The notes below the pieces were generated by a model, which did not search any database, was not told the DNA's origin, and worked only from the letters and a program-made list of their open reading frames with translations. This document shows, piece by piece, positions 4,339 through 18,323 of a DNA stretch of 26,907 nt. Source of the stretch: Archangium sp. (GTDB lineage Bacteria > Myxococcota > Myxococcia > Myxococcales > Myxococcaceae); contig JANLPS010000309.1 in assembly GCA_031367385.1 (NCBI GenBank), forward strand, positions 1-26,907, given 5' to 3'. Position 1 is the first letter of the stretch. The number at the start of each line of letters is the position of its first letter. The position numbers and the translations under genes are program-made.

Positions 4339-5283
4339 TTACTGGCTGACGCTGGCGAAGACCCAGGTGAACACGCCGTCTCCGTCACCCGGCAAGCGCG
4401 TCGCTCTGACGACCGTCGCCAGACACGCGTCGAAGCGGTAGTCGGCCGCGGGAGTGCTGAGATCAGTGCCATTCGCGGTGACCCACGCCTGGGTGACCGC
4501 ACCGCTGACGGCACGAAAGCGAAAGGTCTTGCTGCCGCCCAACCCCGCCCGCCGGGTTCGGGCTTCGTCCCAGCAGGCGCTGACGGCGGGTTGCTTCAAG
4601 GTGAGCGCTTCGTGGGTCGTGTTGAGGTCGAGCGCGCCCAGCGATGAGGTCTTGGGGGTCGCGTAGAATGAGACGTCTCCCGCGGCGAGAGGTGCCGCAG
4701 TGGTGTCGTCGAAGGTGAGCGTGAAGGCGCGGGTCGAAGGCCAGGTCGTCGCCGACAGCACGGCTTCGAGGCATCGCTCTGAGTCGGTCAACGCGAGGGG
4801 TATGGTTTTGACGGCCAGGCCAGAGACCTCGAAGCGGGTCGAGGGTCGCGGCGCGCCCAAGGTCAGGCACGCGCGGGCCAACGGTGCGGGGTCGACGAGG
4901 CCACGCTCGGCGCCGTAGCGGGCGCTCGAGAGCAACTTGACCCAGGCGAGCACGACGAAGCCCGGCACCGGAGCGCTCGGCGGGCGAACGGTGATGGTCT
5001 GGGTCGGCCGCGGTGACCAAACGACTGTGGTGGCGATCTCTCGCAGGCAGCGGGCGGTCGAGTTGGTCGCTCCGTCATGAACATCGAACATCACGTCGGC
5101 GGGCTGAAAGACCAGGTCGACCGAGCCGGTCGAGTCGGCCGGCCAGCAGACACCGAAGAGCGACTCGGGAGGCAGCGCGGTCGCCACCGGGGCGGTGTTG
5201 GTGAATTTGGCTCCGCCCTGCGCCGCGGTGTCGGTGGTCGCGCAGGCGGCGAGGAGAACGAGGAGCAGGAGCGCAGATTTCAC
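4339..5283 (-). CDS. Lipoprotein with AgmX/PglI-like (TonB-C-like) Cys-paired domain(s)
   Basis: Lipobox LLAAC after MKSALLLLVL. The C-terminal unit VSACWDEARTRRAGLGGSKTFRF...FDACLATVVRATRLP resembles myxobacterial AgmX/PglI C-terminal domains. The start overlaps the pdhC stop (GTGA). Confidence 0.7.
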   Translation of the reverse strand: MKSALLLLVLLAACATTDTAAQGGAKFTNTAPVATALPPESLFGVCWPADSTGSVDLVFQPADVMFDVHDGATNSTARCLREIATTVVWSPRPTQTITVRPPSAPVPGFVVLAWVKLLSSARYGAERGLVDPAPLARACLTLGAPRPSTRFEVSGLAVKTIPLALTDSERCLEAVLSATTWPSTRAFTLTFDDTTAAPLAAGDVSFYATPKTSSLGALDLNTTHEALTLKQPAVSACWDEARTRRAGLGGSKTFRFRAVSGAVTQAWVTANGTDLSTPAADYRFDACLATVVRATRLPGDGDGVFTWVFASVSQ

Positions 5284-6593
5284 AGCAACAACCGCAGCGG
5301 GTGCTCGAGGAGCGACCGCAGCTCTTGCAGAAACTGCGCGCCAACCGCTCCATCGATGACCCGGTGGTCACCCGACAACGTCATGCTCATCATCTGGCGA
5401 ATCACCATCTCGCCGTCGCGCACGACGACCTTGGGCTCGACCTTGCCGACCGCCAAGATCGCCGCCTGTGGAGGGTTGATCACGGCGATGAACGAGTCGA
5501 TGCCGAACATGCCGAGGTTCGACACGGTGATCGACCCTCCGGTGTATTCGTCAGGCTTGAGCGACTTCTTCTTCGCGCGCTCAGCAAGCTCTCTGACCTC
5601 TTGGCCGATTTCAGCGATGCCCTTCTGGTCTGCGTCTTTGACGATCGGCGTGATGAGCCCGTCTTCGATCGCCACCGCGACCCCGACATCGACATTTTGC
5701 AGCTGCTGAATCACGTCACCCGCGAACACCTGATTGATGCGGGGGAAACGCCGAACCGCCATCGCCGTCGCCTTGACGATGATGTCGTTGACCGAGATTC
5801 GCAGCTCCTGCGCTTTGGCTTCTTCGCGGAGCTTCAGCGCCTGGTCCATCTCCAGGTCGACGGTCAGATAAAAGTGCGGCACGCCCGGCTTCACTTCACC
5901 CAGCCGCTGCGCGATCACCTTGCGCATGCTGGTCACCGGCATGGAGGTCGGAGCCACCCGCCCACCCGGAGCGCGCGGCGTGATCTTGCCCGGGGCTGAG
6001 CCAGGTTTTGCGCTCGCTGGGGGCTTGTTCATTGCCGCTTCGATGTCGCGCTTGACGATGCGCCCCGAGGGGCCCGAGCCCTGCACCGAGCCCAGGTCGA
6101 TGTGCTGCGTCTCGGCGATCTTCTTGGCCAATGGAGAGACCCTGACCCGGCCGTCTCCATTCGACTCGACGGCGGGCGGCACCGGCTTCGCGACCGGCGC
6201 GGGGGCCGAAGCCGCTGCCGGCATTGGCGCGGTCGGGCTCGGGGCCGACGCAGCAGGCTTCGGTTCGGCGGCTTTCGCAACCTCGGCAGGTTTCGCTTCG
6301 GCCTTCGCCGCAGGCGCAGCCTCTGGGGCGGCACCACCCTCGGGGGCCTTCTCGCCAGCCTTGCCAATCCACCCGATGTTCGAGCCCACCGGCGCGGAGT
6401 CACCCTCCTTGACGAGGATCTTGATCAAGATGCCATCGTCGTACGCCTCGATGGCGAGGTTCGACTTGTCGGTCTCGACCTCGGCGATCTCGTCGCCCGT
6501 CGATACCTTGTCGCCCTCTTTTTTGAACCACTTCGTGATGCGCCCGTCCTTCATCGTCGGGGAGAGCGCCGGGAGTTGAACCGGTACGGCCAT
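5280..6593 (-). CDS. pdhC: Pyruvate dehydrogenase E2, dihydrolipoamide acetyltransferase
   Basis: One lipoyl domain (LPALSPTM...EVETDKS), an Ala/Pro linker, a peripheral-subunit-binding domain (SPLAKKIA...GSGPSGRIVKRDI) and the catalytic DHRVIDG motif. Confidence 0.96.
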   Translation of the reverse strand: MAVPVQLPALSPTMKDGRITKWFKKEGDKVSTGDEIAEVETDKSNLAIEAYDDGILIKILVKEGDSAPVGSNIGWIGKAGEKAPEGGAAPEAAPAAKAEAKPAEVAKAAEPKPAASAPSPTAPMPAAASAPAPVAKPVPPAVESNGDGRVRVSPLAKKIAETQHIDLGSVQGSGPSGRIVKRDIEAAMNKPPASAKPGSAPGKITPRAPGGRVAPTSMPVTSMRKVIAQRLGEVKPGVPHFYLTVDLEMDQALKLREEAKAQELRISVNDIIVKATAMAVRRFPRINQVFAGDVIQQLQNVDVGVAVAIEDGLITPIVKDADQKGIAEIGQEVRELAERAKKKSLKPDEYTGGSITVSNLGMFGIDSFIAVINPPQAAILAVGKVEPKVVVRDGEMVIRQMMSMTLSGDHRVIDGAVGAQFLQELRSLLEHPLRLLL

Positions 6594-6612
6594 GGCAAGA
6601 CCTCGAGCTTTG

Positions 6613-7593
6613 TTATTTGTAGAGAACTTGATTGACCGCTTCGATGACCCGCTCGGTCGACGGCTGTATGGCCCGCTCGAGGTTCGCGGCGTAGGCCATG
6701 TTCACATCGAGCCCATGAACGCGGAGCACCGGCGCGTCGAGATCATCGAAGCACTCGCGCTGAATGAAGTCGGCGATCTGGGCGCCCACTCCGGCGAAGC
6801 CCCAGCCTTCTTCGACGATGACTACCCGGTTGGTCTTCTTCACCGACGCGGCGATGGCTTCGAGGTCGAGCGGCTTGATGCTGCGCAAGTCGAGCACCTC
6901 GGCCGAGACGCCCTTCTCTGCCAACGCCTGGGCCGCTGGCAACACGCACGAGGTCAACATGCGCGACCAGGTGATGATGGTCACGTCAGAGCCGGCCAGC
7001 TTCACGTCGGCCTTGCCGATGGGCACCAGGTGCTCACCTTCTGGCACTTCGCCCTTGAGGCCATAGAGCAGCTCGCCCTCGATGAAGACCACCGGGTTCT
7101 CGTCGCGAATCGCCGACTTGAGCAACCCCTTCGCGTCAGCCGGAGTCGCCGGCGCCACCACCTTGAGCCCCGGGAAATGCGCGTAGTTCGCCTCGAGCGC
7201 CTGCGAGTGCTGCGACGAGAGCCGGCCGCCTGCGCCGCCAGGGCCGCGAAAGACGATTGGGCACCGCAGCTGGCCGCCCGACATGTGCCGTATCTTCGCG
7301 GCGTTGTTGACGATCTGGTCCATCGCCAAGATCGCAAAGTTCCACGTCATCATTTCGATGACCGGCCGCAGGCCTACCATCGCCGAGCCGATGCCCAGGC
7401 CCGCGAAGCCCAGCTCTGAGATCGGCGCGTCGACCACCCGCGCGCTGCCGTACTTCTCGAGCAACCCCTGCGAGACCTTGTACGCGCCGTTGTAGCGGGC
7501 GACCTCTTCGCCCATCAGGTACACGCGCGGGTCACGGCCCATCTCTTCGTCGAGGGCCTCTTTGAGTGCGTCACGGTATGCGAGCTCGGGCAT
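6613..7593 (-). CDS. pdhB: Pyruvate dehydrogenase E1 beta subunit
   Basis: MGEEVARYNGAYKVSQGLL, DAPISELGFAG, PIVFRGP, QHSQ, VVIVEEGW, FDDLDAPV. Located between the E1 alpha and E2 genes. Confidence 0.96.
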   Translation of the reverse strand: MPELAYRDALKEALDEEMGRDPRVYLMGEEVARYNGAYKVSQGLLEKYGSARVVDAPISELGFAGLGIGSAMVGLRPVIEMMTWNFAILAMDQIVNNAAKIRHMSGGQLRCPIVFRGPGGAGGRLSSQHSQALEANYAHFPGLKVVAPATPADAKGLLKSAIRDENPVVFIEGELLYGLKGEVPEGEHLVPIGKADVKLAGSDVTIITWSRMLTSCVLPAAQALAEKGVSAEVLDLRSIKPLDLEAIAASVKKTNRVVIVEEGWGFAGVGAQIADFIQRECFDDLDAPVLRVHGLDVNMAYAANLERAIQPSTERVIEAVNQVLYK

Positions 7594-7596
7594 GAC

Positions 7597-8739
7597 TTAG
7601 GCCGCTCCCTTTTTCTTCATCGGTTTCGCCGCCGGAGCCACTTCTTCAACCGGCGGCGCGATCGACACCGGTGCCTCTTTGGGCTCGAGGTCCCAGGTGA
7701 CTTTGAAGTCGGTCGGGTACGTTGGCCACTTCACCTCGACGCCGCGCACGCGGGCCCGGGGGTGCTCATCGGGCTCTCCTTCGGCGATCAGCGCGTGGGT
7801 GTACACGTCTTCAATGGGCGGTTCGGCCGAGGCGTCGGCGAAAGCAATCGCCTCTTCGACGATGTGTTTCTGCGCTTCGTCGAGCGCGTCGAGCTCTGCG
7901 TCGGTGGCGACCTTCTGCTTCACCAGGTGCGTTCGCAGCGTGATGATCGGGTCTTGCTGCTTGCGCGCCTCGACCTCGTCTTTGGTTCGGTAGGTCGCCG
8001 CGTCAGACATCGAGTGCCCGCGAAAGCGGTAGCAGTACGCCTCGAGCAAGATGGGCCCGCTGCCGGCCCGGAGGTCTTTGGCCAGTGACTCGACCTTGTC
8101 GTGCACGGCCAACACGTCCATCCCGTCGACGGTCTCGCCGCGCATTTTGAAGGCGCCCATGCGCTTGTGAATGTCGGGCTCGCCAGAGACGCGCGCGATG
8201 TCGGTGCCCATGCCGTACTTGTTGTTCTCGACGATGTAGAGCACGGGCAGCTTCCACTTCGAGGCCATGTTGAAGCTCTCCCAGAGGGCGCCCTGGTTGG
8301 CGGCGGCGTCTCCGAAGCTGCACACGGTGATGCGGTCTTCACCGCGGTACTTCGAGGCGAAGGCCATGCCTGCCGCGAGGGGTATCTGCCCGCCGACGAT
8401 GCCGTAGCCACCATAGAAGTGGTGCTCGACGTCGATGAGGTGCATCGACCCGCCCTTGCCCTTGCTGTAGCCGGTGTCTTTGCCGAACAGCTCGGCCATC
8501 AGCATGCCGGCGTCGGCTCCGCGCACCAGTGGGTGCACGTGATCTCGGTAGCCGGTCATCACGTAGTCATCGGGTCGAAGCGCTTCGTTCACGCCGACGA
8601 CGACCGCTTCTTGCCCGATGTACAAATGGCAGAAACCTTGAATCTTTTTCTGACCGTACGCCTGGCCGGCCTTCTCTTCGAAGCGCCGCGAGAGCGACAT
8701 TTTTCGAAACAGGGTCAGCAACAACTCTGAGCTGTGCAC
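7597..8739 (-). CDS. pdhA: Pyruvate dehydrogenase E1 alpha subunit
   Basis: GFCHLYIGQEA, YRDH, KGKGGSMH, TPP motif GDAAANQG...ENN, and YRFRGHSMSD. AGGAGA RBS precedes the GTG start. Confidence 0.96.
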   Translation of the reverse strand: MHSSELLLTLFRKMSLSRRFEEKAGQAYGQKKIQGFCHLYIGQEAVVVGVNEALRPDDYVMTGYRDHVHPLVRGADAGMLMAELFGKDTGYSKGKGGSMHLIDVEHHFYGGYGIVGGQIPLAAGMAFASKYRGEDRITVCSFGDAAANQGALWESFNMASKWKLPVLYIVENNKYGMGTDIARVSGEPDIHKRMGAFKMRGETVDGMDVLAVHDKVESLAKDLRAGSGPILLEAYCYRFRGHSMSDAATYRTKDEVEARKQQDPIITLRTHLVKQKVATDAELDALDEAQKHIVEEAIAFADASAEPPIEDVYTHALIAEGEPDEHPRARVRGVEVKWPTYPTDFKVTWDLEPKEAPVSIAPPVEEVAPAAKPMKKKGAA

Positions 8740-8763: not shown

Positions 8764-10311
8764 TCAGAACCGCGCTTGTATGACTGCGTTGAACCCGAGC
8801 TGGTTTTCTTTCTCGAACGTCGGCTGGGCCACCGAGGCGGTCGAGTCTCTGAAGGTCACCCGGTTGGCATCGCGGGTGTAGAACACCTCGCCAATCGCCG
8901 CGAAGTACTCAGAGATGTCGAGCTTGAAGGTCGCCTTCACCGACACGATGGGGATCACCGTGGTGTTGGCCGGCAAGATGTTGAACAGGTTCACGTCTCG
9001 CACCACGACCGTGCGCGGCCCCTCGAGGCCGGCCGGAGGGTTGTTGCCACCGAAGTCGAAGCGCGGCGCGCTCACCGAGGCCGGCACCTGCACGCCCGCC
9101 ACCAACCCGGCCGTCAAATGCAGCGCGGGGAAAAACTTGTCAGCGCCCACCGCCAACCACACCTCGGGCGAGACCGAGCTGCCCTTGGCGAAGTCGTAGA
9201 ACGGAGGCAAGCCCGGCACGTCGAACTGAATGAACGAGAGCGAGCGAAACAGGCCGAGCGCGAAGAAGCGGTAGAAGTCGTACTTGAAGCGCGCCTGCAG
9301 GGCGACCGAGTTGGCCGGCTGCAGCTTGGTGGTCGCGAAGCGATCAGGGTCGACCAACGTTTGGGTCAGGTACGAGGTCTCGATCTCGAGCTGCATCGAC
9401 AACCCGCCGGGGTAGGTCTCGGGTCGAAAGAAGCGCGTCAGCACGTCGGGGTCGTTGCGGTAGAGCCGAATGTCGATCGACGACTGAATTTCATCGCCCT
9501 GGCTGAACGAGAGCCGCGCCGAGCCGCCCGCGGCCGTCACCGGAGCGTTGATGCCCTGCTGGGCCAACGAAGGCACGATGCCGCGGCCGAAGTAACCGCC
9601 GTTGGCCTCGAGGCGCAGCGCGCGATTGCCGCCGCGGTACAAGTCGATGCCGCCGCCGAGCAAGCCGCCATAGGTGCGCTCTTGCACGTTGAGCAGGTTG
9701 TTGAGCAACAGGCCGGTCTTGAGGCCCACGAAGGCGTACCAGCGGTCGCGGGTGATCTGCAGCTTGCCGCCGGGTACGGCAGAAGGGCGGCCGGTGAGCG
9801 AGGTGCCCGAGCCCTGGTTGAAGGTGAACGCGGAGTCGCCACCCCAGGTCACGCGCCAGTTGTAGCCCAAGCGAAACCGGTCAGACGAGACGGGGAAGCC
9901 GGTCAGCGCGATGTCTTCTTTGGGGCCCCAGCCAGCGGGCTTGTAGTTGAGCTTCACGTAGCTCGAGTTGTCGACCAGCGAGATGGCACCCGACGGCTGG
10001 GTGAGCACCAGCATGTTGAGCGCGGCCTCGGCGTCGAAGCCCTCGAAGAAGCTCGCCGATTTCTTGTAGAGCGTGAGGTTCGAGAGCGTCTCGTACCCGG
10101 TGTAGCGGGTGTTGAAGTTGTCGAAGAACTGGGTGTTCTGCCTGGCGGCGCCGAAACCGGTGCCTGGGCTGTTGGGCGTGGTCTCACCGGGCTTGACGAA
10201 GACGTTGTCGTTCGAAAACGCAAACGTGACACGGGTGTCGATGAAGTCGCCGGCAAACGCAGACGTCGCACAGCCGAGCAACAGCCCGGTCAAAAGCTTG
10301 AGCAATTTCAC
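8764..10311 (-). CDS. Putative outer-membrane beta-barrel protein of unknown function
   Basis: Signal peptide ending SAFA, many amphipathic aromatic-rich strands, and a C-terminal beta-signal-like LGFNAVIQARF ending in Phe. Strong RBS AGGAGAGG. Confidence 0.8.
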   Translation of the reverse strand: MKLLKLLTGLLLGCATSAFAGDFIDTRVTFAFSNDNVFVKPGETTPNSPGTGFGAARQNTQFFDNFNTRYTGYETLSNLTLYKKSASFFEGFDAEAALNMLVLTQPSGAISLVDNSSYVKLNYKPAGWGPKEDIALTGFPVSSDRFRLGYNWRVTWGGDSAFTFNQGSGTSLTGRPSAVPGGKLQITRDRWYAFVGLKTGLLLNNLLNVQERTYGGLLGGGIDLYRGGNRALRLEANGGYFGRGIVPSLAQQGINAPVTAAGGSARLSFSQGDEIQSSIDIRLYRNDPDVLTRFFRPETYPGGLSMQLEIETSYLTQTLVDPDRFATTKLQPANSVALQARFKYDFYRFFALGLFRSLSFIQFDVPGLPPFYDFAKGSSVSPEVWLAVGADKFFPALHLTAGLVAGVQVPASVSAPRFDFGGNNPPAGLEGPRTVVVRDVNLFNILPANTTVIPIVSVKATFKLDISEYFAAIGEVFYTRDANRVTFRDSTASVAQPTFEKENQLGFNAVIQARF

Positions 10312-10346
10312 TTGGTCCCTCTCCTACTTTTTGAAACACGAACGCC

Positions 10347-12557
10347 CTACAACGCGGTGATACAGGGCTTGATGGGTTTGGGGCACTCCAAACCGGCGCC
10401 CGGATAACAGCAGATGTCGTCAGGATCTCTTGGAATCACCATCCACCTTGGCCGCGCGGGCTGAACTTGCCGCAGGTGGCCGATGACGTCGAAGGTCGCG
10501 CCCTGCAGGTCTCGGCACTGCTGCGCTTTTTCGGCGTTCGGGTCGGTGGGTGAACAGTCGACGCTCAGCTCAGGCACCGCGTCTTTCATCAGCAGGTTGA
10601 TGCGCATGTGCGGGTTGTACGAGACGCTGCACGAGCCGCTCGCGTTGACTCGGGCGAAGGCGATCGCGCTCTGACCCGCCGCCATTCGTACGGTGAGCGG
10701 CGTCTTCGCGGGCAGCACCGGGTCGGTCGCCACCGCCACCCCCGAGTCATCACCCAACCGGTAGTGCACCGGCACGTCACAGGCCGCGGCGATCGACGCG
10801 CGGTCTTCGTAGCCCTTGGTCGTGTCGACCACCAAGCCGGTCACCTTCACCGGAGTCGCCACGCCGCCATCAGCCAGCGCGATCGGCACCGTGATGCTGC
10901 GCTTGGGCAAGCTGTCGTCCAAGTTGGCGTAGGCCGGGCCTGCGGGGGCCATCTCGACCACGAATTGGCCGAAGCCTTCGAAGGTCGAGCCCTCTGAGCA
11001 GACGCCCAAATCGGCATCGGCCCCGCGCGTGAGCACGCAGTTCTGCAGGCAGGTGCGCTCAGCCGCGTCGTTCGGCAGCTCGGGCTTGGGCACCGGGTCG
11101 AAGTCGCAGTTGCCCCACGAAGCGATGGTGGTGCCTTGCTCGCCGCGATCGGTGCGGTTGCAGAAAAAGGGCACCGTTGCGTTGCCGTTGAAGTCGCAGT
11201 TGCTGAAGCGGTCGGGCATCTTGACGCCGCGCACGCGAACCAGGGCTGACTCGAGGCTCTCCAGCTTGAGGTTCGAGGTGCTCATGCCGCACAGCACGTC
11301 GGTCACGAACGGCACCTGCGCGTCGTCGAGGCCGCAGATGCGCCCATTCAAGTCGACCGGAGGCACGAAGTTGAGCCACTTGTTCCACTGGTCAGGTGGC
11401 AAGAGGCGAACACTCTCGGCGATCGTCCACCCGGGGAAGACCATCTGCGAGGTCGAGGTGAACTCCTGCACCGAGCCCGAGACGGTGAAGAGCAGGTCGC
11501 CGACGTTGAGCCCATCGGGGTAATTGTAGTTGTAGACGAACATGTGGGCGTAGGTGCCCGGCATGTACCGCTGGCAGGTGTTGCCATTCTTGATGCAGGT
11601 GTGGCGTGAAATGCGACAGATGCCCGTGGCCTCGGTGGTCTGCTCGATGGGCGCGCTCCCGCCGTCGGGCAGGCTGGCGATGCATGGCTCCAGCGGCTCT
11701 GGCGTGCGCACCACGCTTCGCCCGGTGAGCGGGTCGATTGGCACTTCAACCAGGCGGCACGCGGTGAGGTCGGTGATGAAGAACCCCGAAGGGTCGACGC
11801 CGGTGACGACCATCAGCGACTGCACGCCGTTTCGGGCCGGGTCATCGGCGCAGTTCTGCAAGAGCCGCTCGCCCGACTCGGGGTTCTTGCCGACGGTGAC
11901 GAACTCGCCCACGAACGGAGAGCTGCGGTTGTCGGCCCCGTCGGGCAGCTGCATGCTCTGAAGCGTCTGATCTTCGAAGTAAATCGTCGGTGACAAGCCG
12001 CTGGCGAAGGTGCGCAGCGCGGGCTCGACCGGGAGGTCGTCGGGGTTGGGCAAGCCACCTGCGTCGTAGCTGAGCTCAGGCGGAGCGTCTTCGACCCACA
12101 CCCGCACTTCGCCGTACTGGTGAACGGCCTTCACCGTCGCGCTCATGGTGCCGAAGTCGAAGGTGCTCCACCGGCTTCGAACGCTCGGCGCGAGATCGCC
12201 GGGCAAGACCTTGAAGGCCACCGGGCCGCTGAAGCTGGTCAGCGGTTGACCGTTGCGGTCGAGTGACTTGGCGGTGATGTCGATTTCGACTTGCCCGCGG
12301 GGAATGACGTAGCGGCAATCGGCGGTGCCACGCAGCGCCGTGGGGGGCATGCCGCCGTCGAAGCGGGCCTTGCACGACGAGCTGACGCCCAGCGGTACCC
12401 GAATGCCGCCGCCGTCAGCGATGGGCACCCGGACGTAGACGCCTGCGGTCTCGACCGAGAACGACGAGAGGTTCGCCGGGGCGGTGATGACCGTCGGTAC
12501 CGAGCAGGCCCCAAGCGTCAGCGCACCCAGCACGAGAGCAGATGGTCGAAGTCTCAT
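10347..12557 (-). CDS. Cys-rich lipoprotein with ExeM/NucH/YhcR-like OB-fold motifs and no recognisable catalytic domain
   Basis: Lipobox LTLGAC. Motif series TLQSMQ..SSPFVGEFVTV..VVTGVDPSGFFITD..MFVY..LNVGDLL..VSGSVQEFTSTSQM..LESLESALVRV. About 24 Cys besides the lipidated one. ATGA overlap with the upstream gene. Confidence 0.75.
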   Translation of the reverse strand: MRLRPSALVLGALTLGACSVPTVITAPANLSSFSVETAGVYVRVPIADGGGIRVPLGVSSSCKARFDGGMPPTALRGTADCRYVIPRGQVEIDITAKSLDRNGQPLTSFSGPVAFKVLPGDLAPSVRSRWSTFDFGTMSATVKAVHQYGEVRVWVEDAPPELSYDAGGLPNPDDLPVEPALRTFASGLSPTIYFEDQTLQSMQLPDGADNRSSPFVGEFVTVGKNPESGERLLQNCADDPARNGVQSLMVVTGVDPSGFFITDLTACRLVEVPIDPLTGRSVVRTPEPLEPCIASLPDGGSAPIEQTTEATGICRISRHTCIKNGNTCQRYMPGTYAHMFVYNYNYPDGLNVGDLLFTVSGSVQEFTSTSQMVFPGWTIAESVRLLPPDQWNKWLNFVPPVDLNGRICGLDDAQVPFVTDVLCGMSTSNLKLESLESALVRVRGVKMPDRFSNCDFNGNATVPFFCNRTDRGEQGTTIASWGNCDFDPVPKPELPNDAAERTCLQNCVLTRGADADLGVCSEGSTFEGFGQFVVEMAPAGPAYANLDDSLPKRSITVPIALADGGVATPVKVTGLVVDTTKGYEDRASIAAACDVPVHYRLGDDSGVAVATDPVLPAKTPLTVRMAAGQSAIAFARVNASGSCSVSYNPHMRINLLMKDAVPELSVDCSPTDPNAEKAQQCRDLQGATFDVIGHLRQVQPARPRWMVIPRDPDDICCYPGAGLECPKPIKPCITAL

Positions 12558-15004
12558 TTGACTCTCCGGCTGATGCGGCCGTCTTCTTTGGCGGAGGCGA
12601 TCGGCAGCGCGATGGGGTTCTCACAGAAATTTCGCACCGGCCGGGTGACGTGCCCGCACACTTCGAGGCCAGCCAAGGCATCGCGGCAGCCGCAGCGGCC
12701 GAGCACCGGGCCCGCCGGCAACGAAGCCTGGCAACTGGCGATGCGCGCGTCGATCGCCTCGGTGTTGCCGCACTTGCCCTCGCGCCGGTACGCATCGGCG
12801 CACGAGCACCCGTCGCCGGGGTCTGCGAGCAGCTGCGTCTGAAACGAGTCGGCCTGGGCGCAAAAGCTCACCAGGTTGTCAGACACTGTGAACTTGGTGG
12901 GCGACGCGACGTCGCGGCCGCCGCAGGGCTGGTTGTTCTTACCGATGGTGTTGCCGTACTCGTCGGTCTTCTTCAGGTTGATGTCGGTGCAGCTGCAGAA
13001 GTTCTGCATGTACCCGATGAGCGAATCACGGAGGGGGATGCCGGTCTCGATGCGGGTGGTGTTGCGCTTGAGCACCAGAAAGCCCGAGCCGCCGCGCGCG
13101 ATGTAGTCATTGACCGCGATGCGGTAGCTCTCGTTCTCTTGCAGCGGCTTGCCGTTGATCGTGATGTTGGTGGCCGGGTGGGCGTAACAGCGGCCGCCCG
13201 AGGTGATGGTCGGGTCTTGCACACACTGCCAGGGGAAACGGCCTCCGCTGCGGTCGTCGTTCGGGCAGTCGGTGCCGTTGTTGGCCGGGTCGCACGAGAG
13301 CCGAATCTTGTTCAGCTGGGCTTGCGCGCAGTCCATCGTGAAGCGTGCTCCAGAGACCTGCGATTGGCTCACGCAGCCGCGGTCTGATGATTTTTCAGTC
13401 GAGAAATCGAACAGCTCCTGCATTTCGCGGCCTGAGACGAACATGATGTTGATCGTGTTCTCGAAGGGGAACACGTTGAACATCGCCTCTTGGGTGATTG
13501 GCCCGGCGTACAAGTTGTCGCGAATGCCCAGCGAGTTGGTGAGCCCGACCTCGGCCTCGACACCCTGGCGGCGGCGCATCGAGTCGGCGGTGATGTTGCC
13601 CAGTGGCGAGTCGCCACCCGCTGAATTGTTGCGGCGGGCCACGTCTTCAGGCGCGTAGGCGAAGATCGAGGTGAGCGCGAGCCGCACATCGAGGTCGGTG
13701 ATGTACGGCAGCAGCAGCTGGGTCGTCTCGCGGTCTTCTTGCTTCTGACATTCAGCCCGCGCGGCCTTGACCCGATCGTTGGCTAAGAACTGCCCGGGGT
13801 TCCAAAACTGCGACTTGTAGTAGTCGCGCATGCCCGAGTCGCACCACAGCGCATCGACGGGAAACACCTTGAAGTTGTGGCTCAGAATCTCGGCGCCCTC
13901 GGTCTTGTCGAGCGAGTCTTTCGCCGGCATCTGGAGCACCAGATCCATTCGCAGCACGTACTTGGCGAACGCTCCACCGTGCGAGAGCAACACCTTGCGA
14001 CCCTTGGGGTCGGTGAGGGCCTGGGGCGGGTTGAGCACGATGTGCAAGTGGCCGCCGAGAATCGCATCGATGCCTTCGACGCCGGGCACATGCACCCGAA
14101 CCACCGAGGCGTCATCGCCGACGGTGCCGTACCATTCGTTCACCGTCCACGCGTAGGGGTTGATGGGCTTCTTCGGGTCCTGCGCGTACTTCTTGGCGAT
14201 GCTCCACTCGTAGAAGGCCTCGTAGCCCTCGATGAGGTCTTGGTCTTCGGTCAACCCGGCGTGGCTCACGATCATCATCAGGTCGACCGAAGGCCGCAAG
14301 AACTCGACGTACGAGCGAACGATCTCGTTGGTCTCGAGGGGTATGACCTGCAGCGAGTTGCCACGCTCGACGATTGAGTTGAGCGAGCTGATGTTGCCGG
14401 TGCCGATGATGCCCACCCGCACGCCGCCGATGTTCTTGATGGTGTACGGCTGGGTGACCAACGCCGTCTGGTTGCTCTGCGGTTGGCGGTAGTCCTCCCA
14501 CTGGTAGTTCGCGACCAACACGGGGAAGCGGGCGTTGTCACGGGCCTGGCGGGTGAAGTTCGCGGCGCCTGCGTCGAACTCGTGGTTGCCCACCACCGCC
14601 GCGTCGACCTTCATCAGCGACAGAAATTTGTACTCGGCTTCACCCAGGTTCAGGTTGAAAATTGGGGCGCCTTGAAACGAGTCGCCCGAGTCGAGGTGCA
14701 GCACCCGGCCGGCCGAGGCGCGCTCGCGGCGCACCAGCGAGGCGATGCGGGTGGCTCCTCCGAAGGGCCCCATCTCGGGTATCAGGCCCAGGTCGGTGTC
14801 GGTCTTCACCGGGTTGAAGTCGTAGGGCAACAGCCGCGAGTGAATGTCTGAGGTGTGCAGCAGGGTGAAGCGCACCTCTTGACCCGACAGGTCGATCTCT
14901 TCGCCCTCGATGGTCGGCAGACACGAGACGTGAATCAACGCGACCACGGCGTACGCCAACACGCGAAAGGGCCGCAGCAGTCGGTTGAGCGTCAGCGTCA
15001 GCAT
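12554..15004 (-). CDS. 5'-nucleotidase / UDP-sugar hydrolase family metallophosphoesterase, probable lipoprotein
   Basis: Calcineurin-like motifs HTSDIHS, DSGDSFQG, GNHEFD, SHAG, GGHLH. 5'-nucleotidase C-domain motifs SPLGNITADSMR, NSLGIR, VFPFEN, YRIAVNDYIARGGSGF. The hydrophobic N-terminus ends in HVSC. The start may be GTG 15010 or ATG 15004. Confidence 0.92.
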   Translation of the reverse strand: MLTLTLNRLLRPFRVLAYAVVALIHVSCLPTIEGEEIDLSGQEVRFTLLHTSDIHSRLLPYDFNPVKTDTDLGLIPEMGPFGGATRIASLVRRERASAGRVLHLDSGDSFQGAPIFNLNLGEAEYKFLSLMKVDAAVVGNHEFDAGAANFTRQARDNARFPVLVANYQWEDYRQPQSNQTALVTQPYTIKNIGGVRVGIIGTGNISSLNSIVERGNSLQVIPLETNEIVRSYVEFLRPSVDLMMIVSHAGLTEDQDLIEGYEAFYEWSIAKKYAQDPKKPINPYAWTVNEWYGTVGDDASVVRVHVPGVEGIDAILGGHLHIVLNPPQALTDPKGRKVLLSHGGAFAKYVLRMDLVLQMPAKDSLDKTEGAEILSHNFKVFPVDALWCDSGMRDYYKSQFWNPGQFLANDRVKAARAECQKQEDRETTQLLLPYITDLDVRLALTSIFAYAPEDVARRNNSAGGDSPLGNITADSMRRRQGVEAEVGLTNSLGIRDNLYAGPITQEAMFNVFPFENTINIMFVSGREMQELFDFSTEKSSDRGCVSQSQVSGARFTMDCAQAQLNKIRLSCDPANNGTDCPNDDRSGGRFPWQCVQDPTITSGGRCYAHPATNITINGKPLQENESYRIAVNDYIARGGSGFLVLKRNTTRIETGIPLRDSLIGYMQNFCSCTDINLKKTDEYGNTIGKNNQPCGGRDVASPTKFTVSDNLVSFCAQADSFQTQLLADPGDGCSCADAYRREGKCGNTEAIDARIASCQASLPAGPVLGRCGCRDALAGLEVCGHVTRPVRNFCENPIALPIASAKEDGRISRRVK

Positions 15005-15192: not shown

Positions 15193-15897
15193 ATGCCCCA
15201 CGCCGCAGTGACTGACATCGAAATCGTCGAAGACTTTTCGGCCACCGCTCGTTGCGACGAGGGTTTTCTGCAGATTCGACGGCTTCGGGCTCGCAATCAC
15301 CGCGCCGACGGCACCGTGTCACCCATCTACCGCATCGACGTGGTTGACCGGCCCCGGCTCGACGCGGTCGCGGTGCTGGTCTACCGCTCACGACGCGACG
15401 GCGAGCTCGAGTTCTTCACCCGCGAGAACGTGCGACCCGCGGCGCACTTTCGAAGAGACAAGGTGCCGACCATACCTGACGGGCGCTCGCACCTGGTCTG
15501 CGAGGAGATCGTCGCCGGGTTGCTCGAGGCCACCGACCTGGGTCAAGCGGGCGTTCGCAGCCGCGCGGCCAATGAAGTGGCCGAGGAGGCCGGTTTTCGC
15601 GTCGCGGTCGATCGGGTCGAGCTGCTCGGGGCTCCGTTCTTCGTCGCGCCCGGCATCATCAGCGAGAAGATTTTCTTGTGCGCGGTCGACGTGACCGGAG
15701 TCACCCAGAACATGCCCGAAGGCGATGGCACTCCGCTCGAAGAGGGGGGGCGAATGCGCTGGCGCACCGCCACCGACCTGCGCAACGCCTGCCTGGTGGG
15801 AGACATTCAAGACGCCAAGACCGAGCTCGCCTTGAACCGCTTCTTGGCCGAGCGTGATGACGTCTCACGGACCTTCGACGACACGACGACCAGCTAG
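15193..15897 (+). CDS. Nudix hydrolase (ADP-ribose pyrophosphatase-like)
   Basis: Variant Nudix box AGLLEATD...RAANEVAEEAGF, plus DAVAVL, FFVAPGIISEKIFL and IQDAKT, which are typical of the ADPRase subfamily. Confidence 0.85.
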   Translation: MPHAAVTDIEIVEDFSATARCDEGFLQIRRLRARNHRADGTVSPIYRIDVVDRPRLDAVAVLVYRSRRDGELEFFTRENVRPAAHFRRDKVPTIPDGRSHLVCEEIVAGLLEATDLGQAGVRSRAANEVAEEAGFRVAVDRVELLGAPFFVAPGIISEKIFLCAVDVTGVTQNMPEGDGTPLEEGGRMRWRTATDLRNACLVGDIQDAKTELALNRFLAERDDVSRTFDDTTTS

Positions 15898-15898
15898 C

Positions 15899-16630
15899 TC
15901 ACCAGGCGAAGTGCGGTATCGAGACGACGCGGGGCGCCAGTGTCACCTCGCGGCCCGAGTGGTCAGTCGCCAGGTGCACCGACACCGCCTCGGGGAACTT
16001 CTCTGCGTAGTCATTGACGTGGGTGGGCTCGTTGTCGAACGCCGCGATCACCGTGCCGAAGAGCCCGACCTGCGCATGGGCGACCCGCTTGTAGGCGTCG
16101 TCATTCTCTTTGAGCGTCGGCTTCATCAGCAACTTGACCGAGCCGCCAGGGGCCGGCATTTCGCATTTCACCAGCGCCTCGACGGTGCCTTCGCGCATCG
16201 CCTCGTGCCGGCCGGTCACGTAAATCACCTGGGCGTGGGTCGAAAGGCAGGCGTGCAAGAACCTGGGCGCACCGACGATTTCGATGTCGTCTTTGCAGTA
16301 CTCGCTCGTGAAAAAACGCTCAGCCCAGAACCGCTTCACGTCGGCGTAGAGGGGCTCGACCTCGGCTGCGGGCATGCCTGCACCCGTCATCGCGGCCCGA
16401 AGGTCCCACCCGCTGGTGAAGTGAAAGGGTTGGCAGGTCGTCAGCGTGGCGAGGTTCTTCGCGATGCCGTACTCGCGAACGATGCGGGCTTGCCTTGGGC
16501 GGTTGTCGAACAGGGTCGAGTCGAGGTCGAACACCAGCACGCCCGAGGGCCCAAGCTTCTTCGCCGACGCGAGCACGCGCTCGAGCGTCTGCTGCCAGTT
16601 CACTGCGATTCGGTTGTGAAATTCACTCAT
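15899..16630 (-). CDS. HAD-superfamily phosphatase (class B acid phosphatase-like)
   Basis: Motif I VFDLDSTL, motif II YVTGR, Lys motif LLMKP..YK, and motif IV AFDNEP. Confidence 0.85.
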   Translation of the reverse strand: MSEFHNRIAVNWQQTLERVLASAKKLGPSGVLVFDLDSTLFDNRPRQARIVREYGIAKNLATLTTCQPFHFTSGWDLRAAMTGAGMPAAEVEPLYADVKRFWAERFFTSEYCKDDIEIVGAPRFLHACLSTHAQVIYVTGRHEAMREGTVEALVKCEMPAPGGSVKLLMKPTLKENDDAYKRVAHAQVGLFGTVIAAFDNEPTHVNDYAEKFPEAVSVHLATDHSGREVTLAPRVVSIPHFAW

Positions 16631-16664: not shown

Positions 16665-18323
16665 TCACAGCTGCGCGAGCTTGGCCGGGTGCGCTTCGGC
16701 CGGGGCCGGCGAGACCTGGGCTCCAGGCGGCGTGGGCAGCGCCTGATCGGTGTGAGCGAAGATCTCGCTCATGCGCTTGATGCCGTTGCGGTCGAGCACC
16801 AACCGAACCAACCGGGTCTTGGTCTCTTTGTGCTTGCCGTCGTCGACCGAGAACCGAAACGCGAGGTCGACGCGGTACGCCTTCGAGGCCTTGAGCCGCT
16901 CGACGCTGAAGTCATCGATGTCGACGTAATCGAGCGCATACTCCGGGTCGTCCATGTCGTGGAGCATGCGCTCGACGTTGAGCCGAATGATGTCGGTGAC
17001 CCCCGCCACCAGGCCGTCGGCGATGCTGGGCAACATGTGGGAGTCGAGCGTGATGTGCTTGCGGTACCGAATCACCGTCTCGGGCACTTCGCCCTGCGCG
17101 ACGGTGATCAAGTCGTCTTGCGAGCGCATCACGCGAATGTCTTCGGGCACGACCACCGCGCTGTCGTAATCGATGCGCTCTTTGCAGACGCCGACGCTGT
17201 CGTGGGTGACGGGGTCTTGAATGCGGGTGGTGCGCTCGTACAAGAAGCGGCCGAGGTAGGTCGAAAAGAACTTCTGCATCGCGTCTTTGGCACGGTCGCG
17301 CAGCACGTACGCAAAGACCGCCACCATGAAGAACGTCGAGGTCGCGTTGGTCGCGGTGCGCGACTGGGCGAACAGGCTGACGCTCAGCGCCAGGGCCATT
17401 GCCGAGCCGGCCGAGATGGCGAAGAGCAGCTCCTCCCACGACTTGCGGGCCGAGCTGCGCATCACCTTCAAGAACAAGATGTTCATGCAGAACTTCTTCA
17501 AGAAGCTGATCCGGTGCGTGTACTCCTCGTTGTCAGAATCAGGCGCGATGACCGAGGGAAAGCGGTTCAGCTTTCGGTAGCTCTCATCGTTGATCACCAC
17601 GTCCATCAGCTCGCGGCGCAGGTCGGCGTACACTCCGCTGCGAGGCATTCGCTCCATCTGCACGACCACGCGGCGAAAGTAGTGCTCGACCAGCAGGCTC
17701 AGGTACTCGTCGACCAGGCGCAGTGAGGCTTTGGTCTTCTCGCCCAGCGGGTATTTTTCGTTGAGCTGCGCGGTGGTGCTGCGAAACCGGGTCAGCACCT
17801 GTTGGGTGGCACCGACTGACCGGCGAGCCAGCCGCTGCAGCAGCTCGAGCGAGTCGGGGTGGTGGCCATTCGCCAGAATCGCGCAGTGATCTTTCATGCC
17901 CTTCGCGAAACGCCGCAGCGCCGCGCGGAGCACGCACGCCAACATCTTCGCGTCGTAAATCACCTCTGACTCGGGGCCGTTGAGGCCCAGCATGATTCGC
18001 TCTTGCAGCTGAACCAGCGGTGAGTGCGCTCCGGTCAAAAGCTCGTCGAAGGCGAGCACCGGCGTCTTGAGCCGAACGTAGTTGTGCAGGTCAGCGTAAA
18101 ACGCGGCGCGCGGCCAAGTGTCTTGCGTGACGTTGAGTGAGCGGGGCACGAACAGCAGCGTCTCGACCAGGTACTCGCTCTGCGGGTCGGTGCCGCTCGG
18201 TTGGTACTCGAGCTTGAGCTCGAACTGTTTGCGGTCGTGTATTTCGAGCTTGGTCTCGAAGAGGGTGTGCCCTGTCGGTCTGAAGTCACCCCGCTCTGCC
18301 ACGTACCGTAGAGAGTACGTCAC
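16665..18323 (-). CDS. Hypothetical membrane protein (large soluble domains flanking two TM helices)
   Basis: 552-codon ORF with native codon style. Hydrophobic pair LLFAISAGSAMALALSVSLFA and FFMVAVFAYVL. The true start may be GTG at 18302. Confidence 0.75.
   Translation of the reverse strand: MTYSLRYVAERGDFRPTGHTLFETKLEIHDRKQFELKLEYQPSGTDPQSEYLVETLLFVPRSLNVTQDTWPRAAFYADLHNYVRLKTPVLAFDELLTGAHSPLVQLQERIMLGLNGPESEVIYDAKMLACVLRAALRRFAKGMKDHCAILANGHHPDSLELLQRLARRSVGATQQVLTRFRSTTAQLNEKYPLGEKTKASLRLVDEYLSLLVEHYFRRVVVQMERMPRSGVYADLRRELMDVVINDESYRKLNRFPSVIAPDSDNEEYTHRISFLKKFCMNILFLKVMRSSARKSWEELLFAISAGSAMALALSVSLFAQSRTATNATSTFFMVAVFAYVLRDRAKDAMQKFFSTYLGRFLYERTTRIQDPVTHDSVGVCKERIDYDSAVVVPEDIRVMRSQDDLITVAQGEVPETVIRYRKHITLDSHMLPSIADGLVAGVTDIIRLNVERMLHDMDDPEYALDYVDIDDFSVERLKASKAYRVDLAFRFSVDDGKHKETKTRLVRLVLDRNGIKRMSEIFAHTDQALPTPPGAQVSPAPAEAHPAKLAQL

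Follow-up and report, generated by a model that had tools for sequence, protein, structure and literature searches.

Organization of the Locus

The window, by which we mean the whole stretch of 26,907 nucleotides of Archangium sp. DNA that was analyzed, contains three co-oriented genes for putative envelope proteins, here called A, B and C. The locus and its immediate context comprise the following features:

15004-12554, minus strand: gene A, 816 aa from ATG, UshA/CD73-type 5'-nucleotidase lipoprotein (predicted), orthologue MXAN_2661
12557-10347, minus strand: gene B, 736 aa, Cys-rich lipoprotein (predicted), orthologue MXAN_2660
10311-8764, minus strand: gene C, 515 aa, GTG start, predicted outer-membrane beta-barrel, orthologue MXAN_2659
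12554-12557, minus strand: ATGA overlap of the A stop and the B start, seen in the window sequence and, as an overlapping or abutting junction, in 70/70 loci
15193-15897, plus strand: Nudix hydrolase gene (context; equivalent of MXAN_2662), TIGR00052 E 3e-6
5280-8739, minus strand: pdhA-pdhB-pdhC (context, outside the conserved unit), from domain matches; co-oriented, 24 nt after C

The three open reading frames lie where a preliminary description of this DNA had placed them, and the ATGA overlap and the 35-nt gap between B and C, which holds a AGGAGAGGGA ribosome-binding site, are as it had reported. A GTG is located 6 nt upstream of the ATG of A. The ATGA overlap is likely to couple the translation of A and B. 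Among 80 loci fetched from relatives, 70 named loci hold A, B and C as separate open reading frames, and in all 70 the A/B junction overlaps or abuts (50 four-base, 14 one-base and 6 abutting junctions), so that this packing is not a matter of chance. An apparent A-B fusion in one locus (L101) was rejected: close to the end of A the reading frame shifts, and the B signal peptide lies embedded in the product. A promoter and terminator scan returned signals at chance level only.

Two neighbors had been overlooked in the preliminary description. The Nudix gene stands head-to-head with A, an arrangement shared by all 57 loci whose upstream flank is complete (Myxococcaceae). On the other side, pdhA follows C after 24 nt in this genome, and directly follows C in only 1 of the 80 relatives' loci (71 of them with at least 900 nt downstream); a functional tie of the trio to pdh was therefore dismissed, the join being lineage-specific.

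Conservation Across the Myxococcota

In a survey of 201 Myxococcota genomes, 110 had none of the three genes, and 88 of the 91 genomes holding any of them had all three. A and B were adjacent wherever both occurred (90/90), B and C in 74 of 88 genomes. In the remaining 14, a few of them at contig edges, C was unlinked from A-B and stood in unrelated gene contexts, with all three genes still present. Of the 90 genomes with A-B, 88 also carry C, and a single genome has C without A-B; in the seven families with both carriers and non-carriers the genes were lost together, save for this C-only case. The neighborhood survey that the preliminary description had called for thus indicates a trio kept as a unit across the phylum. 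Near C paralogues elsewhere, A or B occurred in none of 20 fetched loci. One relative's locus (L044) has a compact version of the trio, with an A of about 630 aa, a B of 346 aa and a C of 494 aa.

Gene A: A Nucleotidase-Type Lipoprotein

The A product carries a lipobox (Cys28), has 21 cysteines in total and contains Cys-rich insertions. It matches PF00149 (E 6e-6) and PF02872 (E 2e-29), both above the Pfam cut-off, and aligns with nucleotidases of known structure (3ivd, E 4e-37; 2z1a, E 6e-35). In an alignment of 41 orthologues, with D53/H55 as anchor motif, residues D108, N140, H141, H248, H319, H321, R457, N490, R495 and F514 are invariant, Y634 is aromatic throughout (41/41) and D144 is kept in 40 of 41. 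The pocket of CD73 is described as comprising Phe417, Phe500, Asn390, Arg354 and Arg395 (PMC8677862), and the conserved pocket residues of A, mapped via the 3ivd, 2z1a and UshA alignments, match it. Judged by these residues, A has an intact binuclear metal site and a base-stacking pocket, and its domain pair together with the metal and catalytic residues places it in the UshA/CD73 5'-nucleotidase superfamily.

In the nucleoside pocket the aromatics, the Arg pair and the Asn are kept, and the ribose-binding Asp of UshA and CD73 is a Ser (Ser640 in A) in all 41 orthologues, so the true substrate of A may differ from NMPs. Against the UshA equivalog NF007109, A scores 123 bits, far under the curated cut-off of 600. 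This genome encodes six further proteins with 5'-nucleotidase domains; two A paralogues have Gly at the position of the ribose-binding Asp.

Gene B: A Predicted OB-Fold Lipoprotein Related to ExeM

The B product has a lipobox (Cys18) and 25 cysteines in total. Its AlphaFold2 model (pLDDT 95.3, pTM 0.92) can be divided into three parts:

11967-12476, minus strand: Ig-like (invasin/GH2-type) stalk domain at the N-terminus, spanning mature residues 11-180 (VIA Z 7.8)
11355-11969, minus strand: first OB fold, spanning mature residues 180-384 and carrying insertions (VIA and hhalign)
10407-11249, minus strand: probable second OB-like domain with a beta-sandwich insertion (hhalign and alignment)

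In VIA-align comparisons the Ig-like domain has a middling match (Z 7.8, rmsd 3.1, 97 aligned), and the first OB fold aligns with those of AspRS, RPA and MCM (Z 5.4-5.9, rmsd 2.2-2.6, 79-91 aligned). The fold search of B did not pick up the second OB-like domain; its beta-sandwich insertion is confined to the Myxococcaceae rows of the alignment.

Profile comparisons connect the OB region of B, a probable tandem of the ExeM/YhcR type, with the ExeM/NucH/Xds nucleases. The OB region of NF033681 is matched by 8 of 34 B members, and the six matches that were position-checked all fall within profile positions 5-117. Conversely, the B profile picks up all 10 ExeM OB regions, nine of them over the inclusion threshold, and hhalign aligns the two with a probability of 97.5% (E 8e-12), from the first OB through the ExLE motif to the start of the second OB of ExeM; the motifs GF.v.D, EF.g.Tq and lE.lEg are common to both. 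These matches show that the OB region of B is homologous, at the level of sequence profiles, to that of ExeM nucleases, and the OB folds assigned to B in the preliminary description are upheld. The C-terminus of B follows directly after the OB region, and no catalytic domain was recognized. Neither an EEP nuclease domain nor DUF5689, to which the Bacteroidales DNA-uptake lid DdbD belongs in the description of that system (PMC12478041), was matched by any of 34 + 64 members (0/34 and 0/64 proteins for DUF5689). Foldseek with the whole B chain gave nothing meaningful, a search of PDB sequences with the B profile gave 0 matches, and a short B homologue retrieved only unnamed Myxococcota clusters in the ESM Atlas.

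Gene C: A Predicted Porin-Like Barrel

The C product has a signal peptide ending in AFA/G and the C-terminus QARF, as expected from the preliminary description, which had also noted the lipoboxes and the many cysteines of A and B. A lone Cys14 stands in a lipobox-like context; most of the 29 C homologues examined have an Ala-x-Ala/GDF cleavage pattern without a lipobox, and C was therefore read as an SPI substrate. Its AlphaFold2 model (pLDDT 88.9, 495 residues) consists of 18 long strands from residue 2 on and has no plug. MOMP, LamB and AlgE are the best Foldseek matches, and VIA aligns C with maltoporin (LamB) at Z 20.1 (rmsd 4.1, 344 aligned), followed by ScrY (17.9) and Occ (16-17), with BamA/TamA (11.7-11.8) and MtrB (11.3) lower. 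The beta-barrel proposed earlier is thus borne out by the model and both fold comparisons, and the best folds are predicted to be those of solute-selective 18-strand porins. No Pfam or NCBIfam family, TonB-receptor Pfam included, matched C at E 0.01. Counted irrespective of whether they face the lumen, 20 acidic and 15 basic positions are conserved, with no one-sided basic ladder, and the loops are highly conserved. In the ESM Atlas the nearest named clusters are Treponema Msp (0.93) and porins, which we regard as leads only.

A Fourth Gene and the Search for Nucleases

Directly upstream of A, 12 of 30 distant (non-Myxococcaceae) loci encode an extra lipoprotein that contains an OB unit several times over; the window has no such gene. 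All 12 proteins match the ExeM OB region, four have a lamin-tail domain as in ExeM, and two match DUF5689, one of them over the cut-off. The presence of this multi-OB gene strengthens the link of the trio to nucleic acids. Domain searches (Pfam, NCBIfam) recognized no nuclease among the products of the trio and of the fourth gene. This genome (98% complete) has two Endonuclease_NS genes and no match to PF04231, PF02265 or NF033681. In one genome an RNase II/EEP fusion is encoded about 12 kb upstream of the locus.

The Orthologues in Myxococcus xanthus

The preliminary description was correct in placing a similar M. xanthus trio near pdh: the genes are MXAN_2661, MXAN_2660 and MXAN_2659, and pdhA (MXAN_2666) is found on the opposite strand at a distance of some 5 kb. 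ABF90168.1 of M. xanthus DK1622 (656 aa) falls in the 90% cluster of a B homologue. In the outer-membrane proteome MXAN2659 is represented by 17 peptides and MXAN2660 by 6, and among the proteins classed as barrels by both proteome studies only Oar exceeds MXAN2659 in peptides (PMC3222651). MXAN_2661 was reported in vesicles; the trio is highly expressed already without prey, and MXAN_2661 and MXAN_2659 rise mildly on prey (log2 0.56-0.67, ~1.5-fold) (PMC9548883). The M. xanthus orthologues are thus expressed and located in the outer membrane or vesicles. The transcript of C is about three times that of A (617 vs 185) (PMC9548883), which would suit a general porin.

In what is described of an experimental evolution of M. 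xanthus (MyxoEE-3), 7 of 12 evolved populations carried mutations in the operon, and one of the seven had been kept without prey; the most-mutated operon was the frz motility operon, and the prey bias of the mutations was not significant (p = 0.242). Such repeated mutation could mean that the operon is dispensable or costly in the laboratory. A role specific to predation, as suggested earlier, is weakly supported: expression is high already without prey, the rise on prey is small and the prey bias is not significant. A literature search, with most subscription papers outside its reach, found no functional study of the trio, only list-type mentions in three papers.

Comparison With Known Systems

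The trio may bear on the use that myxobacteria make of nucleic acids from lysed cells. OB folds bind sugars and proteins as well as nucleic acids, and in YhcR of B. subtilis OB, nuclease and 5'-nucleotidase are fused in one protein. In contrast to ExeM and YhcR, B lacks both an EEP and a thermonuclease domain; here two separate lipoproteins carry the OB module and the phosphoesterase, with a barrel as an additional component. The OB region of ExeM is reported to be essential for activity and is fused to the catalytic domain (PMC6085458). A has the same two domains as UshA, CpdB and CD73 and the same metal ligands, arginines and aromatic clamp, but it is probably lipid-anchored, exceeds them by ~250 aa and contains disulfide-rich inserts, and it comes with dedicated partners; UshA and CD73 differ further in the ribose-binding Asp and, for UshA, in the equivalog score. 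The eDNA phosphate pathway of V. cholerae, as far as it is described, offers a comparison for A (PMC4714964). LamB-type porins are trimers with an aromatic greasy slide. C resembles the 18-strand channels LamB/ScrY, Campylobacter MOMP, Occ/OprD and AlgE in its predicted fold, with only ~10% identity.

The Bacteroidales ddbABCDEF locus, as described, likewise combines an outer-membrane barrel, an adjacent OB-type lipoprotein and secreted nucleic-acid enzymes in one locus (PMC12478041). However, DdbC is TonB-dependent whereas C is predicted to be a plug-less 18-strand porin, and ddb encodes nucleases (PMC12478041) whereas the trio encodes a 5'-nucleotidase-type enzyme. The DdbD family was matched by the fourth-gene products of two distant loci and not by B. 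The barrels of Sus/PUL and ddb systems have 22 strands and a plug, depend on TonB and carry a physically bound lipoprotein lid. The Sus analogy drawn in the preliminary description therefore holds for the logic and fails for the architecture, since C is predicted to have 18 strands and lacks a TonB plug, and no nuclease is recognizable in the locus. By analogy, the trio appears to follow Sus/ddb logic and is not a member of these systems.

Proposed Function and Alternatives

We give about an even chance to the reading that the trio is a TonB-independent outer-membrane module for harvesting nucleic-acid fragments or nucleotides. Nucleases encoded elsewhere would first cut long DNA, B would bind the fragments or nucleotides by its predicted ExeM-type OB folds, A would likely strip phosphate, and C would serve as a TonB-independent diffusion path into the cell for substrates or products. 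Here we infer the substrate class, the membrane face of A and B, which way material flows and whether the products touch one another; B is a putative lid on C. This reading is favored by the co-inheritance of the genes (88/91), which holds even where C is unlinked (14 genomes), by the conserved pocket of A, the homology of B to the ExeM OB region and the porin-like C, and by the fourth multi-OB gene, the outer-membrane and vesicle location in M. xanthus and the mild rise on prey. It is weakened by the unlinking of C in 14 of 88 genomes and the lack of A or B near C paralogues (0/20), by the nuclease-free locus, the broad binding repertoire of OB folds and the middling Z values of B, by the threefold transcript of C and its missing basic ladder, and by the Asp-to-Ser change, the six other 5'-nucleotidase-domain genes and the repeated mutation in the laboratory.

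A bolder and rather unlikely version, a nucleic-acid "utilisome" of the Myxococcota that would likewise work without TonB, has the OB lipoproteins capping a maltoporin-like C and feeding oligonucleotides to a tethered A, with the Asp-to-Ser change opening the ribose site for chains, so that A-B would be a two-chain exonuclease-phosphatase; if true, it would explain the repeated selection on the operon in M. xanthus.

Somewhat improbable too, to about the same degree, is that A-B alone is the functional unit, a two-chain enzyme like ExeM or YhcR, and that C is a co-inherited general or nutrient porin not serving A-B specifically. The tighter adjacency of A-B (90/90 vs 74/88), the unrelated contexts of unlinked C, the solitary C paralogues and the far greater abundance of C would agree with this, as would the fusion of OB region and catalytic domain described for ExeM (PMC6085458). 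However, C accompanies A-B in 88 of 90 genomes, unlinked lineages included, occurs alone in one genome only, and has highly conserved loops.

Less probable again is a non-nutritional handling of nucleic acid or nucleotides, such as eDNA matrix remodeling, the removal of nucleotide signals, or a role at the surface that affects swarming. It would fit the high expression without prey and, from what is described of the evolution experiment, the 7 of 12 mutated populations, one of them without prey, with frz the most mutated operon; a co-inherited porin-like channel, though, is easier to explain by uptake.

We think it quite unlikely that C serves export or scaffolding (Slam- or MtrB-like), bringing A and B to the surface, and not import. 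The cargo-plus-barrel gene order, the suitability of Cys-rich lipoproteins for surface display and the strict co-presence of the genes point that way, but C is nearer to LamB, ScrY and Occ than to BamA/TamA or MtrB, and large disulfide-rich proteins such as A and B are unlikely to pass an 18-strand pore. DNA uptake for natural transformation, suggested by DUF5689 in the fourth gene and by the Riemerella DdbC/D homologues described as serving transformation (PMC12478041), is very improbable, as the sole enzyme of the locus is of a dephosphorylating type, a maltoporin-sized pore without energizer is ill suited to long DNA, and an unsystematic look noticed no competence genes beside the loci.

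Should the harvesting module with B as a lid on a porin prove real, it would extend Sus/ddb logic to a passive channel; otherwise the trio would be an ordinary scavenging pathway, yet one made of new families. Two of the three families are without a Pfam or NCBIfam model. Among the outer-membrane barrels of the model predator M. xanthus, the one encoded here ranks with the most abundant, and the operon is, as described, a recurrent target of experimental evolution; its anatomy lends itself to specific and inexpensive tests in a tractable organism.

Matches to ExeM (E up to 1e-20) occur in 3 of 91 carriers of the trio vs 13 of 110 non-carriers; mutual exclusion of the two was set aside, as 10 of the 16 ExeM matches come from one family.

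Organization and conservation of the operon

The A-B-C operon is real and conserved. The sequence features claimed in the preliminary description (three co-oriented ORFs, an overlap, a short gap, lipoboxes, Cys-richness and a barrel end) were all found:

15004-12554, minus strand: gene A, UshA-type 5'-nucleotidase lipoprotein, 816 aa, lipobox Cys28, 21 Cys
12554-12557, minus strand: ATGA overlap of A and B
12557-10347, minus strand: gene B, OB-fold lipoprotein, 736 aa, lipobox Cys18, 25 Cys
Between B and C, minus strand: gap of 35 nt
10311-8764, minus strand: gene C, predicted outer-membrane beta-barrel, 515 aa, C-terminal QARF

The source genome, in which the window spans the entire contig C288, is 98% complete and has one close copy each of A, B and C, with additional distant UshA-type paralogues of A. 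The closest named relatives are Myxococcaceae MAGs (top identity in C 90%). A, B and C are separate ORFs in 70 of 80 named relatives' loci, with an overlapping or abutting A/B junction in 70/70; the remaining 10 are broken by contig ends or, in a single locus, frameshifted.

The conservation suspected earlier was borne out by a gene-neighborhood survey of 201 evenly chosen Myxococcota genomes, using the A and C sequences and a profile of B as queries. For A, 97 genomes matched at E <= 1e-20, and removal of 7 with a best E of 1e-28 or weaker as generic nucleotidases left 90; B matched 91, or 90 without one weak match (genome G029, likewise among those removed for A); C matched 89. All three co-occur in 88 of the 91 genomes with any of them, two having no C match and one C alone; the tallies include one unpublished genome (G196), on which none of the conclusions rests, and carry no statistical test, because kin genomes are not independent. 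B directly follows A in 90/90 genomes and C directly follows B in 74/88; outside the window's family, A-B are adjacent in 45/45 and B-C in 29/43. At least 20 families contain carriers, and non-carriers also occur in 7 of these.

Downstream, 24 nt after C, lie pdhABC and a 314-aa ORF that resembles a lipoprotein and overlaps the stop codon of pdhC (4339-8739, minus strand), a recent rearrangement common only to the window and locus L071. Between 15193 and 18323 lie a Nudix hydrolase, a HAD/e(P4)-like acid phosphatase at 15899-16630 and, at 16665-18323, a 552-aa protein without annotation; the latter two adjoin pdhA in several Myxococcaceae loci, and in the window are inverted and apart from it. 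A HelD-like helicase adjoining exodeoxyribonuclease III (24856-26718, minus strand) and a GAF-Ser/Thr kinase (999-3722, plus strand) are ordinary.

The nucleotidase and the OB-fold lipoproteins

A matches PF00149, PF02872 and solved nucleotidase structures, and lies below every NCBIfam equivalog cut-off. As described for CD73, the base is stacked between Phe417 and Phe500, the ribose is bound by Asn390 and Asp506, and the phosphate by Arg354 and Arg395 (PMC8677862). Among 41 A orthologues the metal ligands, the catalytic His, R457, N490, R495 and F514 are invariant, and the Y634 position is always aromatic. Where 3ivd, 2z1a and UshA have a GGDG motif, A aligns as GGSG, in which the Ser is invariant. 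From the six-residue spacing, the GGDG Asp probably corresponds to CD73 Asp506; since two A paralogues in the same genome carry Gly there, its loss is not unique to A. In all likelihood A is a working phosphoesterase directed at nucleotides, with a substrate that may differ from NMPs.

The window's B itself gave no Pfam or NCBIfam match. Its AlphaFold2 model is confident (pLDDT 95.3, pTM 0.92), and VIA-align on this model gave middling matches to an Ig-like domain (mature residues 11-180, Z 7.8) and an OB fold (180-384, Z 5.4-5.9), as well as a small beta-sandwich (~521-632) confined in the alignment to Myxococcaceae rows. Sequence support for the OB assignment is stronger than these Z values: the ExeM/NucH model NF033681 is matched by 8 of 34 diverse B members (best E 2.5e-7, profile positions 5-117), the B profile scores 10/10 ExeM OB regions excised from other genomes, and hhalign of B against the ExeM OB region gives 97.5% across 119 columns. 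In Shewanella ExeM this region is described as containing two putative OB folds and as needed for activity (PMC6085458); unlike ExeM, B terminates where the nuclease domain would start. The family comprises 297 clusters at 50% identity (E <= 1e-30). A complete RCC1 beta-propeller sits inside the Ig domain of some orthologues (~1070 aa; protein P0164 and relatives, loci L074-L081), so B tolerates large accessory inserts.

Among 30 non-Myxococcaceae loci (~3 of them with a shortened upstream flank), 12 encode a co-oriented lipoprotein immediately before A, and in 12/12 of these C is adjacent; this fourth gene is absent from the window. Each of the 12 lipoproteins matches the NF033681 model over its OB portion (E 1e-42 to 1e-4); DUF5689 is found in 2/12, PF01336 in 2/12, a lamin-tail domain in 4/12 and a catalytic domain in 0/12. 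DUF5689 is the family of DdbD, which is predicted to bind DNA as the partner of the ddb transporter in Bacteroidales (PMC12478041). These OB and DUF5689 matches, the strongest added clue, hint at a nucleic-acid substrate.

Related proteins occur elsewhere. In genome G000 (contig C425; locus L192:4832-8842, minus strand), a 1336-aa lipoprotein fuses amidohydrolase and lamin-tail domains with TSP3 and an OB-like region that resembles the fourth-gene proteins; it may deaminate nucleosides or nucleotides at the cell surface. Genome G073 encodes a 1284-aa RNase II/RNB and ExeM-like EEP fusion (L191:2013-5867, plus strand) ~12 kb upstream of its four-gene operon. A small YfcE-type phosphodiesterase gene directly precedes A in loci L060, L063, L065 and L066, where C is not adjacent.

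The predicted barrel

C gave no family match. Its predicted structure (pLDDT 88.9) has 18 long strands and no plug, with maltoporin (Z 20.1), sucrose porin, Campylobacter MOMP, Occ channels and AlgE as top structural matches; its conserved charged positions are of both signs, 15 being basic and 20 acidic in 41 rows. Neither A nor B was among the genes listed near unlinked C genes or C paralogues (20 loci). A less likely reading has A and B acting as an enzyme, with C a general porin loosely tied to it.

In several Myxococcaceae genomes, shorter C paralogues that lack the first ~70 positions of the profile occur by themselves (L158-L162). Near one unlinked C gene, L176:8013-13904 encodes both a multi-LTD protein and one of 798 aa that carries a ComEA-like HhH motif.

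Orthologues in M. xanthus

A similar trio near pdh had been suggested for M. xanthus, and it exists: MXAN_2661 (2385 nt), 2660 (1971 nt) and 2659 (1536 nt) share a strand, and the opposite strand carries a Nudix gene as well as pdhA (2666) (PMC9548883 supplement). This arrangement fixes their orthology to A, B and C; DK1622 ABF90168.1 (656 aa) clusters at 90% with a homologue of B. Normalized expression without prey is ~185, 380 and 600 for 2661, 2660 and 2659; after 6 h on prey the log2 fold change is 0.56 (2661) and 0.67 (2659), 2660 being missing from that report's up-regulated tables (PMC9548883). MXAN2659 and 2660 belong to the outer-membrane proteome (PMC3222651), and a vesicle location is cited for 2661 (PMC9548883).

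The operon carried mutations in 7 of 12 evolved M. xanthus populations; at least three mutations per operon were improbable by chance (p = 0.0011), and the mutations showed no significant bias towards prey (p = 0.242) (bioRxiv 10.64898/2026.05.15.725110); the mutation types bear on selection for loss versus tuning. A non-nutritional role for A-B-C is unlikely, somewhat more so than the loosely tied porin.

Proposed mechanism and known systems

In the most likely mechanism, short nucleic acids would be bound at the outer membrane by B, with the fourth protein where present, A would dephosphorylate these or their nucleotides, and C would pass substrates or products; physical contact among the three, the membrane face and the substrate are what we infer here. 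That C is an export barrel is improbable, and a service of A-B-C in transformation is highly improbable.

The literature searched yielded no functional description of the operon. The proposed analogy to Sus loci holds for the logic of the locus, as it does for ddb loci; membership fails because A-B-C has no TonB barrel and no nucleases. The proposed nucleic-acid route through A, B and C would resemble the Vibrio nuclease-UshA/CpdB pathway, as described in PMC4714964. Two Endonuclease_NS genes lie elsewhere in the window's own genome, one with a lipoprotein-like start.
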